DNA of 63,043 nucleotides, counting the filler, from Candidatus Desantisbacteria bacterium CG1_02_49_89 (lineage in GTDB: Bacteria; Desantisbacteria; UBA1551): assembly GCA_001871075.1 (NCBI GenBank). It is 6 parts of 6 records of this genome, joined end to end, with 100 filler letters (N's around TTAATTAATTAA, not from the genome) between each part and the next. Parts side by side here need not be neighbours in the genome. Positions count along the whole stretch, not along the records: positions 6,357 to 31,566 come from MNUP01000079.1; 5 more parts are not named here. One strand, written 5' to 3'. Position 1 is the first letter of the stretch. Each line of letters starts with the position of its first letter. Of the stretch, positions 6,257 to 57,578 are shown piece by piece. The translations under genes were made by a program, and so were the position numbers. Under the pieces are notes generated by a model. That model did no database searches and had not been told where the DNA came from. It saw nothing but the letters and a program-made list of their open reading frames with translations.

Positions 6257-6356
6257 NNNNNNNNNNNNNNNNNNNNNNNNNNNNNNNNNNNNNNNNNNNN
6301 TTAATTAATTAANNNNNNNNNNNNNNNNNNNNNNNNNNNNNNNNNNNNNNNNNNNN
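6257..6356. other. Artificial contig linker (also 31567-31666, 36930-37029, 49182-49281, 57479-57578)
   Basis: N-run, ttaattaattaa, N-run. Confidence 0.99.
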
Positions 6357-10021: not shown

Positions 10022-10780
10022 TATTTTTAAACCTCTTATTTTAAAGTGTTTTTCTGACTACTTTTAGAATTTTTAAATGTTCGACCCAGCATAACTTCGA
10101 TTTTCTTTACAAATTCTTTATTACCCGCAGGTCGGCCTGATATTGTACTGCTTTTTATTTCTTTAACAATTCTTCCATCTTCGTATTCTGAAAGGAAATT
10201 TTTCCAATCTTTAATTTCAGAAATTAGATAAGATTCCCCGGGCAATAAATTATCCAGTTTCCTATTTACATGGACTTGCGCGCTTGACCACCTATAATCC
10301 TCAGGATTATCTATAATACCCGCCTTGACCGGATTCATCTCTACATATCGAACAGCGGTATAAAGATGAGTTTCACCTAAAACACAGGAAAAAAACCTGG
10401 ATTGCCACACATGCCCTTTGCGATTCTTCCGATGGTTGAAATATTGGGAATATAAGGTACCTACCGTATGAAAAACGCCCGACATTGAATCGGGATTTTT
10501 GGGAACAGCAACCAAGTGCAAATGGTTGGGCATCAAACAATAAGCCCAGATTTCCAAACCGAATTTTTTACTATATTTCTCCAGCAGTGAGAGATACGTT
10601 TTATAATCCGACTTGCTTGTAAATACTCTCTGCTGATTATTACCTCTTTGAGTGATATGGTGTGGAAAACCAACAGCTATCGCTCTTGCAATCCTGGGCA
10701 TGCTTACTCCTTTTAAAAAATGAAAAGTGCTTCGAATTCCCCTTATTTTACGTGATTATAAAAATAGTGCCTGTCCCTAT
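10008..10780 (-). mobile_element. TIR-flanked Y1 (HUH) transposase element, RAYT/TIRYT-like
   Basis: Perfect 22-bp inverted repeats atagggacaggcactattttta (10008-10029) and taaaaatagtgcctgtccctat (10759-10780) around a low-GC ORF. Confidence 0.8.
10036..10701 (-). CDS. REP-associated tyrosine (Y1) transposase
   Basis: PHHITQRGNN, AYCLMPNHLHL (HUH), RYVEMNPVKAG, YRWSS. Confidence 0.92.
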   Translation of the reverse strand: MPRIARAIAVGFPHHITQRGNNQQRVFTSKSDYKTYLSLLEKYSKKFGLEIWAYCLMPNHLHLVAVPKNPDSMSGVFHTVGTLYSQYFNHRKNRKGHVWQSRFFSCVLGETHLYTAVRYVEMNPVKAGIIDNPEDYRWSSAQVHVNRKLDNLLPGESYLISEIKDWKNFLSEYEDGRIVKEIKSSTISGRPAGNKEFVKKIEVMLGRTFKNSKSSQKNTLK

Positions 10781-28594: not shown

Positions 28595-28851
28595 TACTCA
28601 CCTCCCCCCTGTTTTTAAAACCGTTCGTCGTGCGTCGTGCGTCGTGCGTCGTAAAAACAGCTGGTTAATTGGATAGAATTGTAAAATTTGAAAAGTTAAA
28701 AGGGATCGTAGATTTGTAGGTAGTATTGTATTATTCCAATTTACGATTAACTGCTTTTGCAACCACGAATTAACACGAATTTCCACGGATTTTTACTCTG
28801 TAAACTTTGTAAACTATGGAAACTCTGTAAACTACATCTGCTTTTGCCTTG

Positions 28852-29298
28852 TTATTTGAGCTCCTTAACTTCCTTGCTGAAATCGTCAACGTCCTTGAAC
28901 TCGCGGTAAACCGAGGCGAAGCGCACGTAGGCGACCTTGTCGACCTTGTGCAGTTCTTTTATGACCAGCTCGCCTATGCGCTTTGACGGGATCTCCTTTT
29001 CAAGCGAGGACTGAAGTTTCGCCTCAACCCTGCCGGCGATGCCCTCTAACTGCTCCATGCTTATGGGGCGTTTTTCACAGGAATGGAGAAGACCTTTCAG
29101 GATCTTTTCCCTTGAAAATTTCTCCCTCCTGCCGTCTTTTTTGATAACCATTATAGGGATTTTTTCTATCTCTTCGTAGGTGGTGTAGCGTTTTTTGCAC
29201 TGCAGACATTCTCTGCGTCTCCTTATTGAAAGGCCGTCTTCATTTTCGCGGGAATCAACAACTTTGTCCTGAAGGCTGTTACAGAAGGGACACTTCAT
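28852..29298 (-). CDS. nrdR: Transcriptional repressor NrdR
   Basis: MKCPFC...KVVDSR...RRRREC, VAYVRFASVY. Confidence 0.97.
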   Translation of the reverse strand: MKCPFCNSLQDKVVDSRENEDGLSIRRRRECLQCKKRYTTYEEIEKIPIMVIKKDGRREKFSREKILKGLLHSCEKRPISMEQLEGIAGRVEAKLQSSLEKEIPSKRIGELVIKELHKVDKVAYVRFASVYREFKDVDDFSKEVKELK

Positions 29299-29476
29299 TA
29301 TCAATGCCCTCTTAAAACGGCGTTAATTGGATTTGAAGGTTGTATGAGTATAAAGATATATATTATTCCGCTATTTTAAATTGCAAATTTCAAATTGTAA
29401 ATTGCAAATTTTATTAAAACACTATAAATACGGCCGGAAAGGGGCAAAAAACGGTAAAAACGCTGTAAAACCGAAA

Positions 29477-29529
29477 CCACTACATATTGTATCATTGGAT
29501 ATTATATCATACAATATATTGTTTGTCAA
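29477..29529 (-). promoter_or_regulatory. nrdR-nrdD promoter with two NrdR boxes
   Basis: Boxes ccactacatattgtat (29477) and atacaatatattgttt (29509), 32 bp apart; minus-strand TTGACA-17-TATAAT (29529-29501). Confidence 0.85.
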
Positions 29530-29875: not shown

Positions 29876-29944
29876 AAATAATCTCCTCCCTGCGTCTTTG
29901 AATTACTTTTTTAATTTCCTTTTAATGGACTCGTCGCTCAAACT

Positions 29945-30054
29945 TTCCGGAGTAGAGCCTTTAGGCTCGTTTATTTCTCGTTTCAATCCACGCCTCCGCG
30001 CGGGAGGCGACTCCTGGAGTAGAGCCTTCAGGCTCGTTGGGTACCTGTTTCAAT
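29945..30054 (-). CRISPR. Mini-array: one full I-C-type repeat (29980-30011), an 8-nt repeat remnant (30047-30054), two related spacer-like flanks
   Basis: Repeat identical to the 32-bp repeat at 31229-31523; 35 nt separate it from gtttcaat. Confidence 0.8.
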
Positions 30055-30607
30055 AAACGTAATATCGGTTCTTCTTATCTGTTAAATCTTTAAATATGAT
30101 TTGACATTTGTCAAGACCAGGCACCCAAGCTTTTTGAATGAGAGTATTTTGAACATAATAAAGTGCTTCCTTAACGTTTTTGCATTTTGACATAATAACG
30201 ATATTGTGTCCCCAGGGTATTTGGGTTATTTGGCCAACAAGTTGTTGGCTAAATGCAGGAGACCTGGAATAAAACAGGTACCATTGCTTTATGTATTTTA
30301 GATTACTCAGAGAAAAACCTTTAATATCGCGGAACTCAGCAGCTAAATCCCTGCTTAACTGGGCAAGAACCCCGTCGCCCCACTTTGATTTCTTTTGCTT
30401 TAAAACAATATCCACTCCGAGTTCCCAGTAAAAAGCGAGAAGTTCAGCATTGACTTTTATTACTGCTTTAATCTGGGCAGCACGGACCTTTTGCTTTATC
30501 TTTTCCAGCCAAACCTTATAGTCATTACCCTGGGCAAAATTAACAGCCATATTTGCATTCACAATCCTGCCTCCATATTTACAGAATTTTCCACCGCGTT
30601 TCTCCAA
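30050..30607 (-). pseudogene. Truncated YhcG/DUF1016 (N-terminal domain only)
   Basis: VNAELLAFYWELG, WGDGVLAQLSRDL, GFSLSNLKYIKQWY, IPWGHN; similarity ends near 30145 and the PDDEXK domain is absent. Confidence 0.8.
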
Positions 30608-30643
30608 TATCCGCTGGCATCAGCGCTATCATTTCAATCCCCA

Positions 30644-30866
30644 TATTGTGACATGCTTACGATAGAACCCACGAACAACAAGGTTCTGCCGAAGGCAGGT
30701 TCTTATTGTGTCACGCCCACGACTCAACCCACGAACAACAAGGTTCTGCCGAAGGCAGGTTCTTATTGTGTCACGCCCACGACTCAACCCACGAACAACA
30801 AGGTTCCGAACGAAGTGAGCGGTTCTTATTGTGTCAGGCCTACGACTACACCTGCGGACAACAAGC
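30644..30866. repeat. 60-bp tandem hairpin repeat (two identical, one variant, degenerate flanks)
   Basis: Unit aacccacgaacaacaaggttctgccgaaggcaggttcttattgtgtcacgcccacgactc at 30666 and 30726; variant at 30786. Confidence 0.92.
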
Positions 30867-30872
30867 TTTGCT

Positions 30873-31566
30873 TATAAATCGGGTCTTAAATTCTTACCGG
30901 TTAAGATTGTAAGCATTGCAAGGAACAGCGAAGGTTTCAATCCCCTATAAATCGGGTCTTAAATTCTTACGAAAATGTCGGAGGACTCCGCGCACATAGC
31001 CAAAAAGTTTCAATCCCCTATAAATCGGGTCTTAAATTCTTACAATGGTATACGTAGGGTAAGAGGCGCACAGGACAAAAGTTTCAATCCCCTATAAATC
31101 GGGTCTTAAATTCTTACATAGGGTGGCTGATACCGGAAGACAAGGACATAAAGGTTTCAATCCCCTATAAATCGGGTCTTAAATTCTTACCCGGGAAGCG
31201 GGCAGCAGGAAAGGGAGGCGAGTATGAAGTTTCAATCCACGCCTCCGCGCGGGAGGCGACATACTGCCCCTGTTATAAAATTTCCTAATATAAGTTTCAA
31301 TCCACGCCTCCGCGCGGGAGGCGACTATAGCCGCTGGGGAAGATGAAATTGCCGTTACTGTTTCAATCCACGCCTCCGCGCGGGAGGCGACTCAATGCTT
31401 ATAATGCTATGGTGGACGTTGCAATGTTTCAATCCACGCCTCCGCGCGGGAGGCGACCGCTAATTTAGCAGCTGGGGTTACAATTACATTTGTTTCAATC
31501 CACGCCTCCGCGCGGGAGGCGACAGATGAGGCGGCAAAAGGGATCCTGGGATTTAAGTTTCAATCC
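30873..31566 (-). CRISPR. Hybrid CRISPR array, 10 spacers: 37-bp repeats (partial 30873; 30934, 31007, 31081, 31154), then 32-bp I-C-type repeats (31229, 31294, 31360, 31426, 31492; partial 31557)
   Basis: Minus-strand repeats GTAAGAATTTAAGACCCGATTTATAGGGGATTGAAAC (spacers 36,36,37,36,38 nt) and GTCGCCTCCCGCGCGGAGGCGTGGATTGAAAC (spacers 33,34,34,34,33 nt). Orientation from the ATTGAAAC 3' end. Confidence 0.97.
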
Positions 31567-31666
31567 NNNNNNNNNNNNNNNNNNNNNNNNNNNNNNNNNN
31601 NNNNNNNNNNTTAATTAATTAANNNNNNNNNNNNNNNNNNNNNNNNNNNNNNNNNNNNNNNNNNNN

Positions 31667-31950: not shown

Positions 31951-32050
31951 GCTGTTTCCGTCGTAAGTCGTACGTCATACGTCGTACGTTAAAAACTAAA
32001 ATACCGTCGGACGTCGTAAGTCGAACGTCGGACGTTAAGAACTATACTCC

Positions 32051-32416
32051 TTAAAAACTTTCTTTCAGTTTCTTGGTCAGGTTTATTATCATTCTTGAAG
32101 TGTGGTTTAATTCTTCGAGGAGGTTCTTTTCGGTTTCTTCCGGAATGTACCCAAAATTCTTAGCAAGGCTTACCTGGGTTTCCAATTCTGCTGCTGAACC
32201 TAACGCTATAAACAGAAATTGTTTGTATTCGTTTCTGTGGGACCTGCGAAAACCTTCAGCGATATTTGACGGTATGGATGTGGCAGACCTATTCATCTGC
32301 AAGGTGAGATTAAAATTCTCTATCGAAGGAAAACCGCAGGTCAGTTTGTGGACTTCGCCGGCTATCTTCATCCCTTTTTGCCAGATATCCAGATCTCTGT
32401 AACTTTTTATTTCCAT
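32051..32416 (-). CDS. Four helix bundle protein (23S rRNA IVS protein/Avd-like family)
   Basis: SYRDLDIWQK, FPSIENFNLTLQMNRSATSIPSNIAEG, GSAAELETQ; heptamer repeats on both sides. Confidence 0.92.
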   Translation of the reverse strand: MEIKSYRDLDIWQKGMKIAGEVHKLTCGFPSIENFNLTLQMNRSATSIPSNIAEGFRRSHRNEYKQFLFIALGSAAELETQVSLAKNFGYIPEETEKNLLEELNHTSRMIINLTKKLKESF

Positions 32417-36399: not shown

Positions 36400-37160
36400 G
36401 CTGCCTCCCTTTTAACATTAAACAAAAATTTCCACGAAATCACGAAAGTATCACGAAACCACGAAATAAGCTTTTTACAGGGATTTATGGAGATTTAAAA
36501 AATAAAATTATAGTAGTTTAAATCCCGTTAAATCCCTGTTAAAAGATATGTTTTTCACAGGGAACCCGCCTACGCAGATACTCCTTCAACCTTAGCTTCC
36601 CGCTATTCGCGGGAAGGTTACGGATGCTACGGCGGGCAGGCTTACGGGAACTTAAAAAACATTCAGCCACGGATTTCCACGGATTTAAACTGTGTAAGCT
36701 CTATAAACTATGTAAACTTATTCAAAAGTACCCCCTTGCCCCCTTGTTAATAATATATTAGACTCTGTTATATATATTTCAATATATTATATGCTATTTG
36801 AGCAGGTTTGTCAAGTTATCATAAATTTTTACGCTGAAATCCGCTTTGCGAAAAATTCTTAAATAAAAAAGGCCCTCGTTTTGAGGACCCGATTCCTCCC
36901 TGTCCGACGTAAAATAATTTCTCTGCTGANNNNNNNNNNNNNNNNNNNNNNNNNNNNNNNNNNNNNNNNNNNNTTAATTAATTAANNNNNNNNNNNNNNN
37001 NNNNNNNNNNNNNNNNNNNNNNNNNNNNNGACCTAAAAATCGAGATTGCCACGCTCCCTTTGGTCGCTCGCAATGACAACTCAAAGCAGAATCAAATGTC
37101 AAGGGATTTATGTGACACCACACTAGAAGCCATAAAAGAAATCTTTTCAAAATGAATTTC

Positions 37161-45940: not shown

Positions 45941-47414
45941 AAGGCTTTCCCACTTTACTCGCAACTTTAGATTAGGATTTATATCTTTTTTGTTATTAAG
46001 GGCGTCTTGAAAAATAGATGTTGTTTATGGCGCGCATTTAATTTTATTGCTCTTTGACTTAAAGTGTGGTAGAATTTCTCTAAGAAAGGAGGGATTCTAC
46101 CAATGCAAAACAACGAGAAAGAACCGAAGGTCAAGATTCTCAGGACAAGGGTTCCTAAAACTGTCATTTGTCCCTTTTGTGGAATGAGACAACCATTTAG
46201 AAAAGAAACCGGTTACTGGCGAACCATAAAGGATATGAACCTTGATGAGCCAGTGCTACTAAAAATCCAGATGGTGTGTGCTAAATGCTTAAATCCTGTC
46301 TGTAAAAAGGGAAGTTTCAGTCTGCCTGTCTCTGGAATAGAAAAATACGCAAGGGCAACAATTAGGCTTAAAAAGGAATCCGTTGCTACAATCATCGAGG
46401 ATAATTCCACACTTCCCAGGGCAGGGAAAAGATTATCGCGTTCATTTAATACCACAGGCAGTAAATCCAGTATTGACCGCTGGAAACATCGAGAAGCTGA
46501 TAAATACGATATTAAGGACATCATTGCCAGACTTGATTTCTCCGGAGTACTTTCTCTTGATGAATACTGGCCGAGGCGTTCATCCACTCCTGATTTCATA
46601 AGTGGTGATGGACTTAAGTGCAGGATCCTTTATGCCGAGAATGTCCCCGAGAGAAGCTACAAATATGTAAAGGCTCATTTAGAGAAAATAAAGGAATTGG
46701 GAATTAATCCCTGGCTGATTATATTTGATACCTGGAAGCCTTTTCCTGGGGCAGCAAGGGAAGTTTTTCCAAATATCCTTATCCAGATTGACTACTTCCA
46801 CATTATGAAGGTAGTGCACTGGCACTTAAGGAATGCCCTGGCTGAATACCGCAAGATGCTCAAAGAACAGGAGAATAGCCTTCATAAAGTTCTCTGGAAG
46901 AACAGAAAATTAATTCTAAAGAATCTGGATGAACAAACTCAAGAACAACGCATAGAAACCAGGTTTACACTCTCTTTGTTTAAGGGAACGGTAGTAGAGG
47001 ATATTATTACTTTCAAAGAGTGGATCCGTGATATTTTCCTCTGTAGCAGAGACAAACAGGATGCCCTTAACAGAAGAAACAGGCTTTACGCCGATAAATG
47101 GCATTTAAAGAACAGGCACTTCCGTTTTATAATGAAGTATCTTATGTCTCATGTCTTTAACTACATGACCACTTATTTAGAACACCCTGGAGTCCCAAGG
47201 TCAGGTAACTCAGAAAATCTCATCAGTGTATGGCGCCAGATGGAATCAGTGCGCTACGGATTTAAGAGTAACAAGGGCGCCCTGGACCACCTTAAACTCT
47301 ACCAAATTTCCAAGTATTTAGAGGGCAAGTTTCCTTAAAACACGAAAAAATGAGCTAAGTATAGCTATTTCAAACCATTATGTTAAAAAGTTGCGAGTAA
47401 AGTGGGAAAGCGTC
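45941..47414 (+). mobile_element. Complete ISL3-like IS with terminal inverted repeats and 8-bp TSD
   Basis: IR core gctttcccactttactcgcaacttt at both ends; gaaaaccg duplicated at 45933-45940 and 47415-47422. Confidence 0.9.
46103..47338 (+). CDS. DDE transposase, ISL3-like
   Basis: CPFCG...CLNPVC zinc finger; LSLDE, IIFD, QIDYFH, NSEN. Confidence 0.85.
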   Translation: MQNNEKEPKVKILRTRVPKTVICPFCGMRQPFRKETGYWRTIKDMNLDEPVLLKIQMVCAKCLNPVCKKGSFSLPVSGIEKYARATIRLKKESVATIIEDNSTLPRAGKRLSRSFNTTGSKSSIDRWKHREADKYDIKDIIARLDFSGVLSLDEYWPRRSSTPDFISGDGLKCRILYAENVPERSYKYVKAHLEKIKELGINPWLIIFDTWKPFPGAAREVFPNILIQIDYFHIMKVVHWHLRNALAEYRKMLKEQENSLHKVLWKNRKLILKNLDEQTQEQRIETRFTLSLFKGTVVEDIITFKEWIRDIFLCSRDKQDALNRRNRLYADKWHLKNRHFRFIMKYLMSHVFNYMTTYLEHPGVPRSGNSENLISVWRQMESVRYGFKSNKGALDHLKLYQISKYLEGKFP

Positions 47415-49181: not shown

Positions 49182-49281
49182 NNNNNNNNNNNNNNNNNNN
49201 NNNNNNNNNNNNNNNNNNNNNNNNNTTAATTAATTAANNNNNNNNNNNNNNNNNNNNNNNNNNNNNNNNNNNNNNNNNNNN

Positions 49282-55668: not shown

Positions 55669-55742
55669 TAGCGGCGGACCGATTCGAACGGTCGACCCTA
55701 CGGGTATGAGCCGTATGCTCTAACCAGCTGAGCTACGCCGCC
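55669..55742 (-). tRNA. tRNA-Met (CAT), probably elongator; CCA not encoded
   Basis: GGCGGCGTAGCTCAGCTGGTTAGAGCATACGGCTCATACCCGTAGGGTCGACCGTTCGAATCGGTCCGCCGCTA folds as a cloverleaf. Confidence 0.93.
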
Positions 55743-57319
55743 ATTAGTTTTGGCTCGACATGCGCTTCGAACTTTCCTATAGGCAATCTAAATATTATTT
55801 CAACCTTCCCATCATGGCCTATTTTGACTTGTTTAAAGATGGCTCCAATCAGGTTCTTTTTTTCATTTATATCTGCCGCTTCGAAGTAATCATCAAATCT
55901 TTCAATAATGTCTTTTGTAAAATTAGTATCGGCTTCAGCGAGCTGTTGGTTGGAACGTTCAACCCTAATGTTATTAAGCTCTGCCCCAATTTTATTTTGC
56001 TTCGAAGATATGATTTCAAATTTCTCTGCAAAATTTTTCTTATCTATTTTTGATTCCTTGAATTGTTCGATTAAAGTCTTTTCTTGTCCTTCCAATATTT
56101 GTAAATTACTGTACAAAGATTTCTCGTTTCTGATAAGGTTTTCTAAATCGGGGCCTGTTTCTCTTTTAACTTCATCAACAATCCTTTTTATTTCTGGTAA
56201 CTTATTCTTCAATTTTTTCATTTGCATAATCAAAAACGGTTCAATAATTTCTTGACGGATGGACTTCACCTTACATTCTTTGCAATACTCTGTCTCTATG
56301 TCCCGACCGCGCTTCCATCGATTGCACCTGTAATACCTTTCAACAACTCCATTATCTCGGGTCTTACACCAACCTTCAAGTGTCATATCACAAGGTGTAA
56401 AATGGATTAAATTAGTGAATAAGTATTCGGCATTGTTGTGTTTTGTTAATTTCCCTGACCTATTTTTTATCTTTTCCTGAACAGCATCAAAAATAGGTCT
56501 GCTTATTATCGGCTCATGATGGTCTTTTATTACAATCCAACGTTCAGGTTCGTTCTCGAATGTTCTTTTTTTACCTTCAATCTTTTCAAAAAATGTCTTA
56601 TTCCAGGCAAAGTCTCCGGCATATGCAGGATTTTTTAATATTTTCATAATAGTGTTTTGCGAGAATTGTTTTCTTAAGCGCGTTGTTATGCCAATGCTTT
56701 TTAAATAGCGGGGAAGCTTTCTCATTGTTCCCATATTTTCATAGAGATATTTTTCAAAAATCGTTTTTATTACACCAGAGCGTATCGGGTCTACCACAAA
56801 TTTTTTATCAATCAACTTATATCCATCTGGTACATTCCCACCAAGGTAATTGCCCATGGTAGCGCTTTTTTCCATCCCCAGTTGGACCCTTTCAGCAATT
56901 GATTCCCTCTCCCATTCCGCGAAAACTGCAAGCATTCCCAAAAGAGCTTTTCCCGAAGAAGTCGTAGTGTCAAAGGACTCTGTTGCGCTTTTGAATCCTA
57001 CCTCATTGGACTCAAAAGCGTCTTCCAAAAGCCACAATAAATCTCTTAACGACCTTGATAATCGGTCTAATCGATAGACAAGAACGATGTCAAACTTCCT
57101 GTGTTTGGCATCTTCAATCAATCTTGTCAGTTCGGGTCGATAAATATCTCTAGCGCTACATCCCGCGTCCTTATAAATATCAACGACTGTCCATTTTTGA
57201 AATTCCGCAAAACGTTTTAATGTGTCCTCTTGAGCATCTAGTGAAAATCCTGTCTTTGCTTGCTCATCCGAAGAAACACGAATATAAAAAACTACCTTTT
57301 TCTTAGGGGTCTCCCGCAT
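55733..57319 (-). CDS. Large serine recombinase (integrase)
   Basis: YIRVSSDEQ, RLDRLSR, ILKNPAYAG, HEPII, zinc ribbon, coiled coil; aaggag RBS; TTGCAT-17-TATACT upstream; low GC. Confidence 0.95.
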   Translation of the reverse strand: MRETPKKKVVFYIRVSSDEQAKTGFSLDAQEDTLKRFAEFQKWTVVDIYKDAGCSARDIYRPELTRLIEDAKHRKFDIVLVYRLDRLSRSLRDLLWLLEDAFESNEVGFKSATESFDTTTSSGKALLGMLAVFAEWERESIAERVQLGMEKSATMGNYLGGNVPDGYKLIDKKFVVDPIRSGVIKTIFEKYLYENMGTMRKLPRYLKSIGITTRLRKQFSQNTIMKILKNPAYAGDFAWNKTFFEKIEGKKRTFENEPERWIVIKDHHEPIISRPIFDAVQEKIKNRSGKLTKHNNAEYLFTNLIHFTPCDMTLEGWCKTRDNGVVERYYRCNRWKRGRDIETEYCKECKVKSIRQEIIEPFLIMQMKKLKNKLPEIKRIVDEVKRETGPDLENLIRNEKSLYSNLQILEGQEKTLIEQFKESKIDKKNFAEKFEIISSKQNKIGAELNNIRVERSNQQLAEADTNFTKDIIERFDDYFEAADINEKKNLIGAIFKQVKIGHDGKVEIIFRLPIGKFEAHVEPKLMAA

Positions 57320-57578
57320 AGCAATCGACTCCTTAATATATTTCATATAGTATAACAAATAAAAGTAAAAAATGCAAGTAAAAAGTCGTTTTTATCCTGA
57401 TTATACCATCCAAAACATCGTCCGCTGCGGCATTATTCTTTCTTTTTTTTGGGAATATCGCTCTTTTTTTTATATTGTNNNNNNNNNNNNNNNNNNNNNN
57501 NNNNNNNNNNNNNNNNNNNNNNTTAATTAATTAANNNNNNNNNNNNNNNNNNNNNNNNNNNNNNNNNNNNNNNNNNNN

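Follow-up and report, generated by a model that had tools for sequence, protein, structure and literature searches.

Among the closest described relatives of the locus discussed here are the canonical type I-C (Dvulg) arrays that Cas5c processes, for example the ones in Bacillus halodurans and in Streptococcus mutans (CRISPR2; PMC8524198). [quoted passage not shown] Like the canonical arrays, it has a 32-nt repeat (R32) with the type I-C fold, spacers of 33-35 nt and, on a matching metagenome contig (L001), the same operon order. Unlike them, its far end switches to a second, 37-nt repeat family (R37), and the array encloses a truncated gene and tandem repeats.

The R37 units are best compared with the Cas6-processed arrays that stand beside type III-A, III-B or III-D genes and have 36-37-nt repeats ending in GGGGATTGAAAC. 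R37 resembles those repeats in its length and its 3' half, and the spacers of 36-38 nt are also alike; however, the R37 units of this locus have neither their own leader nor cas6 or type III genes in view, and they sit behind a I-C array. Two effector classes served by one array are described for Marinomonas mediterranea, which combines a III-B with a I-F system (PMC5576922). An arrangement of that kind would be a possible use for the R37 units. The Marinomonas systems reportedly share one repeat type, whereas here two repeat types are present in one transcription unit and the second effector is putative.

Deletion, duplication and exchange of array units, as described by Kupczok et al. 2015 (PMC4524480) and by Ou and McInerney (10.1101/2022.05.19.492656), are also what separates the window from L001 and from a second metagenome contig, L002. 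The relevant passages of these two papers do not mention exchange between repeat families, and Kupczok et al. treat one repeat per data set; the families joined here have 8-10 nt in common. The locus is a mosaic array that probably arose by recombination at a shared handle, and array rearrangement itself is already known. Finally, a lone repeat at 29980-30011, outside the main array, resembles the CreA element of CreTA modules (PMC9458426). Unlike CreA, the lone repeat keeps to the register of the array, together with a spacer and what is left of another repeat, and its look-alike target has no protospacer-adjacent motif (PAM) and differs in the first 8 positions.

Our results confirm that a single array contains two repeat families. 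On balance, we consider it probable that this is a real composite CRISPR locus, in which a I-C array would have been joined to an R37 block at the repeat end common to both families, the R37 units being mostly passengers. The physical layout and orientation of the locus, its operon, its repeat families and its variation in the population are all matters of observation. An in-register switch of family was seen in none of the 37 DNA stretches with I-C repeats and in none of the 79 parsed R37-family loci. Phrase searches, which had most subscription journals and supplements outside their scope, turned up no account of a natural array in which I-C repeats are joined to a different family.

Layout and orientation of the array

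The window consists of six contigs joined by linkers of the form N44-TTAATTAATTAA-N44 (at 6257-6356, 31567-31666, 36930-37029, 49182-49281 and 57479-57578), so features that cross a linker position are not contiguous in nature. The array sits at the right edge of contig 6357-31566 and stops at the contig end, which is not its true end. Its parts are as follows.

30861-30897, minus strand: terminal R37, degenerate at its 3' end, with the first 25 nt kept in transcript orientation
30898-31190, minus strand: R37 part, comprising four exact copies of the 37-nt repeat and the spacers S1-S4 (36, 36, 37 and 36 nt)
31191-31228, minus strand: junction spacer S5, 38 nt, of the long class
31229-31566, minus strand: type I-C part, five exact 32-nt R32 copies, five spacers and a 10-nt stub at 31557-31566

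An exact-match search of the window placed the R37 copies at 30934, 31007, 31081 and 31154; with S5 included, the spacers of this class measure 36, 36, 37, 36 and 38 nt. The exact R32 copies start at 31229, 31294, 31360, 31426 and 31492 and have spacers of 33, 34, 34, 34 and 33 nt. These positions bear out the original prediction that 37-nt repeats with 36-38-nt spacers pass without a gap into 32-nt repeats with 33-34-nt spacers. The prediction was also right that sharing is limited to the repeat ends, as R32 and R37 are identical over the first 10 bases (10/10) and match at only 4 of the next 22. Read in transcript orientation, R37 closes with the 11 nt GGGAUUGAAAC, which depart from the I-C handle, UGGAUUGAAAC, by a single base. 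The terminal R37 matches the others at 27 of 37 bases overall and at 25/25 over 30873-30897, and it is in the same state in L002. The junction spacer S5 contains TCGCCTCCC, a look-alike of the R32 start.

Six of the seven distinct R37-class spacers begin, in transcript orientation, with a T-rich word (CTTC, TTTT, TTTT, CTTT, TTCA, TTCA). The eight I-C spacers have no such bias, as compared with the R37-class spacers of 30898-31228 and of L002 11812-11920. The T-rich starts may be a trace of the PAM of the system that acquired these spacers.

A scan of metagenome contigs with the 29-nt R37 core matched only two contigs, L001 and L002. L002 is from the same species, with 2 mismatches to the window over 11,600 nt. 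It is colinear with the window from nrdD to the R37 part, shares the solitary R32, the DUF1016 gene fragment, the 60-bp repeats and the degenerate R37 described below, and terminates 5 nt into S5. L001, which is also of this species, supplies the other side of the locus. It contains cas3, cas5c (L001 2682-3446), cas8c, cas7, cas4, cas1c and cas2, each of the seven scoring over its NCBIfam cut-off. Behind cas2 stand a leader of 180 nt, a first R32 followed by a 34-nt spacer, a second R32 followed by a 33-nt spacer, a truncated S5 and, at the contig end, R37. The truncated S5 is a 32-nt piece that consists of the first 31 nt of the window S5 plus C. Comparison of the window with L001 shows turnover of the leader-side I-C spacers. 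Neither among the window proteins nor in L001 was a cas6 or type III gene found, and the I-C cas genes likewise lie outside the window.

Judged from the sequence, the array is transcribed on the window minus strand and its leader lies beyond 31566, because the fold of the I-C repeat, the position of cas2 and the leader, the 3' degeneracy of the last R37 and the common leader-side ends of S5 and of another spacer, Sx, all agree on this direction. Consequently, it is the I-C part, the newer one, that stands next to the leader, and the older R37 part forms the far, leaderless end. What comes before the first R37 is S5 and a I-C repeat, not a leader of its own. A promoter scan found no good minus-strand promoter within the R37 part, which is weak evidence because it returned 5 sites against 5.1 expected by chance.

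Identity of the two repeat families

On the minus strand R32 folds into a 2-nt overhang, a 7-bp stem, a pentaloop and the 11-nt tail UGGAUUGAAAC, which ends in AUUGAAAC. The same anatomy is described for Cas5c-cut type I-C repeats in PMC8524198. Together with spacers of 33-35 nt and the I-C operon and leader of L001, the fold identifies the R32 part as type I-C. The exact R32 sequence is present in 37 DNA stretches, including some from Acidobacteriota, Desulfovibrio, Synergistaceae and Omnitrophota. Its distribution indicates that R32 is a common, mobile I-C repeat, the argument for mobility being that the repeat is identical across many phyla.

The similarity of R37 to Rfam CRISPR-DR8 scores 29.5 bits, under the gathering score of 39. 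R37 ends in the 8-nt handle ATTGAAAC and carries the family motif CCCGATNNNTAGGGGATTGAAAC (23 nt with 20 fixed bases); this 3' motif has 81 matching DNA stretches in other genomes, where the period is 65-80 nt. Of these repeats, the one nearest to R37 is in a Latescibacterota metagenome-assembled genome (MAG) and is identical to it at 32 of 37 positions. Exact R37 had no matches in species-representative genomes, and a similar repeat was not found in the one Desantisbacteria relative genome that was searched.

The neighbours of R37-family arrays were classified by a PADLOC scan of 136 open reading frames (ORFs) of at least 150 amino acids from 36 loci, with 40 ORFs of ten loci left out. The outcome was as follows.

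Type III effector subunits beside the array: 9/36 loci
Type III signalling genes only: 5/36 loci
Only Cas6, Cas1, reverse transcriptase (RT), PrimPol or WYL: 9/36 loci
Type I marks: 2/36 loci, both Heliophilum
No cas gene: 11/36 loci

Thus type III genes occur at 14 of these 36 loci and Cas6 at seven; I-C genes stand beside none of them. Five ORFs of locus L003 are outside the PADLOC count and were covered by a separate NCBIfam scan, in which L004 adjoins type III genes while L003 and L005 are without them on the side in view. Both assignments made in the original prediction have held up: R32 is a type I-C repeat, as its fold and the full operon adjoining it in L001 attest, and R37 is of the Cas6/type III style, its relatives elsewhere standing beside Cas6 and type III genes.

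Some of the R37-family loci display patterns of their own. For example, four Latescibacterota loci (L134, L136, L181 and L193) have a PrimPol-like gene directly beside cas1. An RT gene lies beyond the array in L136, and L164 and L142 have an RT gene with no PrimPol in the scanned part. In a Sulfurovaceae MAG (L004 1483-2010), two mini-arrays of two repeats each are 300 nt apart, and their repeats share only the first 15 nt (GTTTCAATCCCCTAT). They are flanked by a tyrosine recombinase gene and by type III genes (Csx20, RAMP proteins).

The junction and its variants

The leader-side end of S5, TTCATAC(T)CGCCTCCCTTT (18-19 nt in transcript orientation), recurs at the start of Sx, which in L002 is placed between two R37 repeats. 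This common start and the 38-nt length class make S5 a spacer of the R37 type. These observations fit a crossover that would have lain within the shared GGATTGAAAC or a little upstream of it. The original prediction included a crossover in the 10 bp common to both repeats, and the length of S5 and its Sx-like start support that part. The accompanying picture of a simple end-to-end fusion is incomplete, as there is a I-C repeat beyond the R37 block.

The junction in L001 equals the window layout minus the stretch from TCGCCTCCC in S5 to the same 9-mer at a later R32 start, and a 9-nt microhomology deletion from a window-type arrangement would explain it. The reverse order, from L001 to the window, is unlikely because new spacers enter at the leader and the two I-C spacers of L001 are absent from the five beside S5 in the window. 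From the L001 junction it follows that a further short-homology event of this sort took place here.

There are differences between the R37 parts as well: the spacer order is S1-S2-S3-S4-S5 in the window and S1-S3-S4-Sx-Sy-S1-S2-S3-S5 in L002, and we infer that each could be one repeat-to-repeat deletion away from S1-S2-S3-S4-Sx-Sy-S1-S2-S3-S5. What distinguishes the variants is that whole repeat-spacer units have been deleted or duplicated, and their junctions fall in repeated sequence, as recombination between repeats would leave them. Taken together, the differences between the window, L001 and L002 imply that short-homology and repeat-mediated recombination are active at the locus. The junction seen in the window cannot be pieced together from L001 and L002, since 66 of the 127 21-mers over 31154-31300 are absent from both.

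The block beyond the R37 repeats

About 900 nt to the left of the main array, beyond a truncated DUF1016 gene, is a solitary R32 that the original prediction did not include. The features of this region are as follows.

29945-29979, minus strand: spacer-like 35 nt, a diverged copy of 30012-30046 (26/35, same register)
29980-30011, minus strand: solitary exact R32, the far I-C array remnant, also in L002
30012-30046, minus strand: spacer of I-C length, 35 nt, between the exact R32 and the GTTTCAAT remnant
30047-30054, minus strand: 8-nt repeat end GTTTCAAT (ATTGAAAC on the minus strand), in register, at the distal block junction
30050-30607, minus strand: truncated DUF1016 (YhcG-like) gene of 185 codons with the N-terminal domain only (DUF1016_N, E 3.3e-33, Pfam)
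30644-30865, no strand assigned: tandem repeat with a 60-bp unit, present about 3.3 to 4 times, its last copy merging into the degenerate R37

The chance of finding the 8-mer GTTTCAAT at one of six plausible offsets is about 9e-5. If 30047-31228 is deleted on paper, the order R32, 35-nt spacer, R32 is restored. No recognisable repeat was seen after the spacer-like 29945-29979 when the sequence was read.

The DUF1016 gene is a fragment. Five of the six aligned homologues have 340-383 amino acids, with a C-terminal half that is absent here, and the sixth (P0015, 292 amino acids) is itself incomplete. Homology fades near residue 170, and the TGA stop codon is supplied by the 8-mer ATTGAAAC. The guanine plus cytosine (GC) content is 38% in the fragment and 40% in the R37 part, as against 51% both in the 60-bp repeats and in the rest of the contig. 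The 60-bp repeat has no second copy in the window; its units 1-2 have a terminator-like plus-strand hairpin (30685-30699 and 30745-30759).

The restored R32-spacer-R32 order, the in-register 8-mer, the truncated DUF1016 gene and the low GC content are the reasons for reading 30055-31228, with somewhat better than even confidence, as a foreign block of about 1.2 kb that would carry an R37 array tail and lie inside, or between the remnants of, a I-C array. The block is flanked by the 8-nt direct repeat ATTGAAAC and has no transposase gene within it. No terminal inverted repeats were noticed on reading the block sequence, although no dedicated inverted-repeat search was made. The contig of the nearest relative (a Desantisbacteria MAG, 79% identity) ends 800 nt upstream of nrdD, which leaves the ancestral state of the site unreadable.

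The 24 nt next to the 8-mer (30055-30078), on its upstream side when the minus strand is read, bear a weak, in-register likeness to R37: scores as high are reached by 165 of 2000 shuffles and by 24 of the 1148 windows taken from the contig. They have no likeness to R32. A true R37 origin of these nucleotides, which is not secure, would mean that the arrays underwent a double crossover. A second degenerate R37 at 30047-30083 was rejected and kept as a weak possibility only.

Two other proposals for this region were also rejected. The solitary R32 could have been a CreA-like regulator, but its look-alike target, the neighbouring spacer (26/35), is preceded by a repeat end instead of a PAM, and the seed is mismatched (2/8 of the first guide positions match). 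Nor was the block integrated by Cas1-Cas2 as a giant spacer, as 8 nt are duplicated instead of the whole repeat.

How the locus may have arisen and how it would be processed

The events that we favour would be as follows. A complete I-C system just past the contig end would add spacers to the minus-strand array and transcribe it, with canonical I-C repeats near the leader and four to eight R37 units further down. These units would belong to the low-GC block, which would sit between I-C repeats and consist of the R37 array tail, its degenerate last repeat, the 60-bp repeats and a DUF1016 nuclease gene reduced to its 5' half. The join would have been made by illegitimate recombination, presumably through microhomology, in the 8-10 nt (GG)ATTGAAAC, the 3' end common to both families. 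The R37 part would then be transcribed only through read-through from the I-C leader.

The structure of R37 has consequences for its processing. Cas5c needs the 7-bp stem, at whose 3' base it cuts, and the bases just after the cut. Recognition by the B. halodurans enzyme (BhaCas5c) centres on U22-G23-G24 at that place; the S. mutans enzyme (SmuCas5c) tolerates changes downstream of the cut (PMC8524198). R37 has GGG at the place of U22-G23-G24, and its predicted fold has no 7-bp stem. For these two reasons, Cas5c would be expected to process the R37 part poorly, so that S1-S4 would be passengers. Among the R37-class spacers, only S5, which is behind a proper R32, would presumably receive the I-C 5' handle.

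Several points weigh against this picture. The exact window S5-R32 junction is present in one assembly, as L002 ends before it and the junction of L001 differs. Moreover, the three assemblies may share samples and are independent as assemblies, not necessarily as DNA. Insertion of a block depends on an 8-nt remnant whose neighbouring 24 nt are only weakly R37-like. The R37 copies are identical, 4/4 being exact in the window and 8/8 in L002, which better fits a recent event or continuing selection than an old fossil. As for the passenger status of the R37 part, the tolerance of SmuCas5c makes some Cas5c processing of R37 conceivable, and this tolerance together with the one-base handle difference means that some of its guides could be used by I-C Cascade. 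A Cas6 and a type III effector, if the genome encodes them, could also make the R37 part useful.

Alternative explanations

In one alternative, which we regard as unlikely, the R37 array and its trailer would be native, and a I-C operon with its leader and array would later have taken the place of the R37 leader end through a crossover within the 10 nt common to both repeats. The last R37 is 3'-degenerate and is followed by non-CRISPR DNA, like the trailer end of a native array, the 60-bp repeats are host-like in GC (51%), and a I-C repeat that is identical across many phyla indicates a mobile system. This explanation has two weaknesses. The DUF1016 fragment and the R37 part are foreign in composition (38-40% GC against 51%), and a second unexplained event is needed for the exact R32, the 35-nt spacer and the in-register ATTGAAAC past the truncated gene. 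The far I-C repeat at 29980 would have to come from a separate event. Roughly speaking, block insertion into an existing I-C array seems about twice as probable as replacement of the R37 leader end by a I-C module.

A second alternative, of which we are equally sceptical, is that both parts of the array are in use. The I-C leader would acquire spacers and drive one precursor, Cas5c would cut the I-C part and a Cas6 from elsewhere would cut the R37 part. An array-less type III or other Cas6-dependent effector would be supplied in this way; alternatively, I-C Cascade would itself load R37-flanked guides. Continued use would agree with identical R37 copies and with the persistence of the R37 part in three assemblies; the core scan matched only this locus, which would then be the matching effector's only array in those data. 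The near-identity of the last 11 nt of R37, GGGAUUGAAAC, to the I-C handle, UGGAUUGAAAC, is also favourable, and S5 and Sx as CRISPR RNAs (crRNAs) would be antisense to a ribosome-binding site plus ATG, which suits RNA targeting. Type III systems that employ type I arrays are described (PMC5576922).

On the other hand, neither the window nor L001 has a cas6 or type III gene, the R37 differences between the window and L002 are deletions and a duplication and not additions at the leader end, and a family switch was absent from all 37 I-C-repeat stretches and all 79 R37-family loci surveyed. The specific proposal that one I-C leader would serve two guide-processing systems (Cas5c and Cas6), or that I-C Cascade would load R37-flanked guides, with the shared ATTGAAAC as the interface, is less likely still. 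The composite locus with a largely passive R37 part is the explanation that we prefer.

That the assembler joined two separate arrays at a shared repeat end is very improbable: the array is at a contig end and the three assemblies disagree on spacer order and junction, but L001 connects R37 to I-C repeats through a different junction, the left flank, far I-C repeat and all, recurs in L002, the junction words of the window are private and absent from L001 and L002, and the shared stretch of 10 nt is below normal assembler word sizes.

Spacer targets and viral carriage

A blastn search (E up to 1) of the INPHARED phages with 29940-31566 gave no matches, and exact 26-mers of spacers S4, B and S2 had none in IMG/VR. 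The 18-mer common to S5 and Sx gave three matches, which do not extend and are in generic ribosome-binding-site contexts. With up to 5 mismatches allowed, the 15 spacers had no match in the rest of the window or in 2.0 Mb of comparator loci.

The R37-family motif has one single match in IMG/VR. The exact I-C repeat is present once, alone, on a 78-kb IMG/VR viral contig (L213 14513-14544) and as a 14-repeat array on an 11.6-kb IMG/VR viral contig (L214 30-528 and beyond).

Other features of the window

Further to the left of the array, a perfect sigma-70-type promoter (TTGACA, 17 nt, TATAAT, with TG) lies at 29501-29529 on the minus strand, about 200 nt upstream of nrdR (28852-29304), and probably serves nrdR-nrdD. 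Heptamer tandem repeats (CGTCGTG, CGTCGTA) are present in the intergenic regions 28620-28650 and 31959-32035, and one set adjoins a gene of the 23S-rRNA-IVP family (32051-32416).

The other contigs of the window contain a few genes related to mobile elements. These are a REP-associated tyrosine transposase-like gene (10036-10701, 75.1 bits against an 80-bit cut-off), an ISL3-like transposase gene (46103-47338, 83.1 bits against a 180-bit cut-off) and a large serine recombinase (55733-57358).

Conclusions

Normally a repeat family goes with cas genes of its own, and an array is taken to be uniform, whereas this locus is a natural splice of two unrelated families. Mosaic arrays of this kind can mislead both array-typing tools and the dating of events from spacer order. 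If the far part is a mere passenger, the locus is a tidy example of array recombination and nothing further. If both parts are used, an array-less type III effector would depend on an array that the I-C machinery alone can extend, and the shared ATTGAAAC end would let arrays of unrelated subtypes be spliced and yet work. In addition, the locus is a substrate for testing how much of the repeat is needed by Cas5c and I-C Cascade, and for testing whether a common handle allows the passage of guides from type I to type III systems or the other way.

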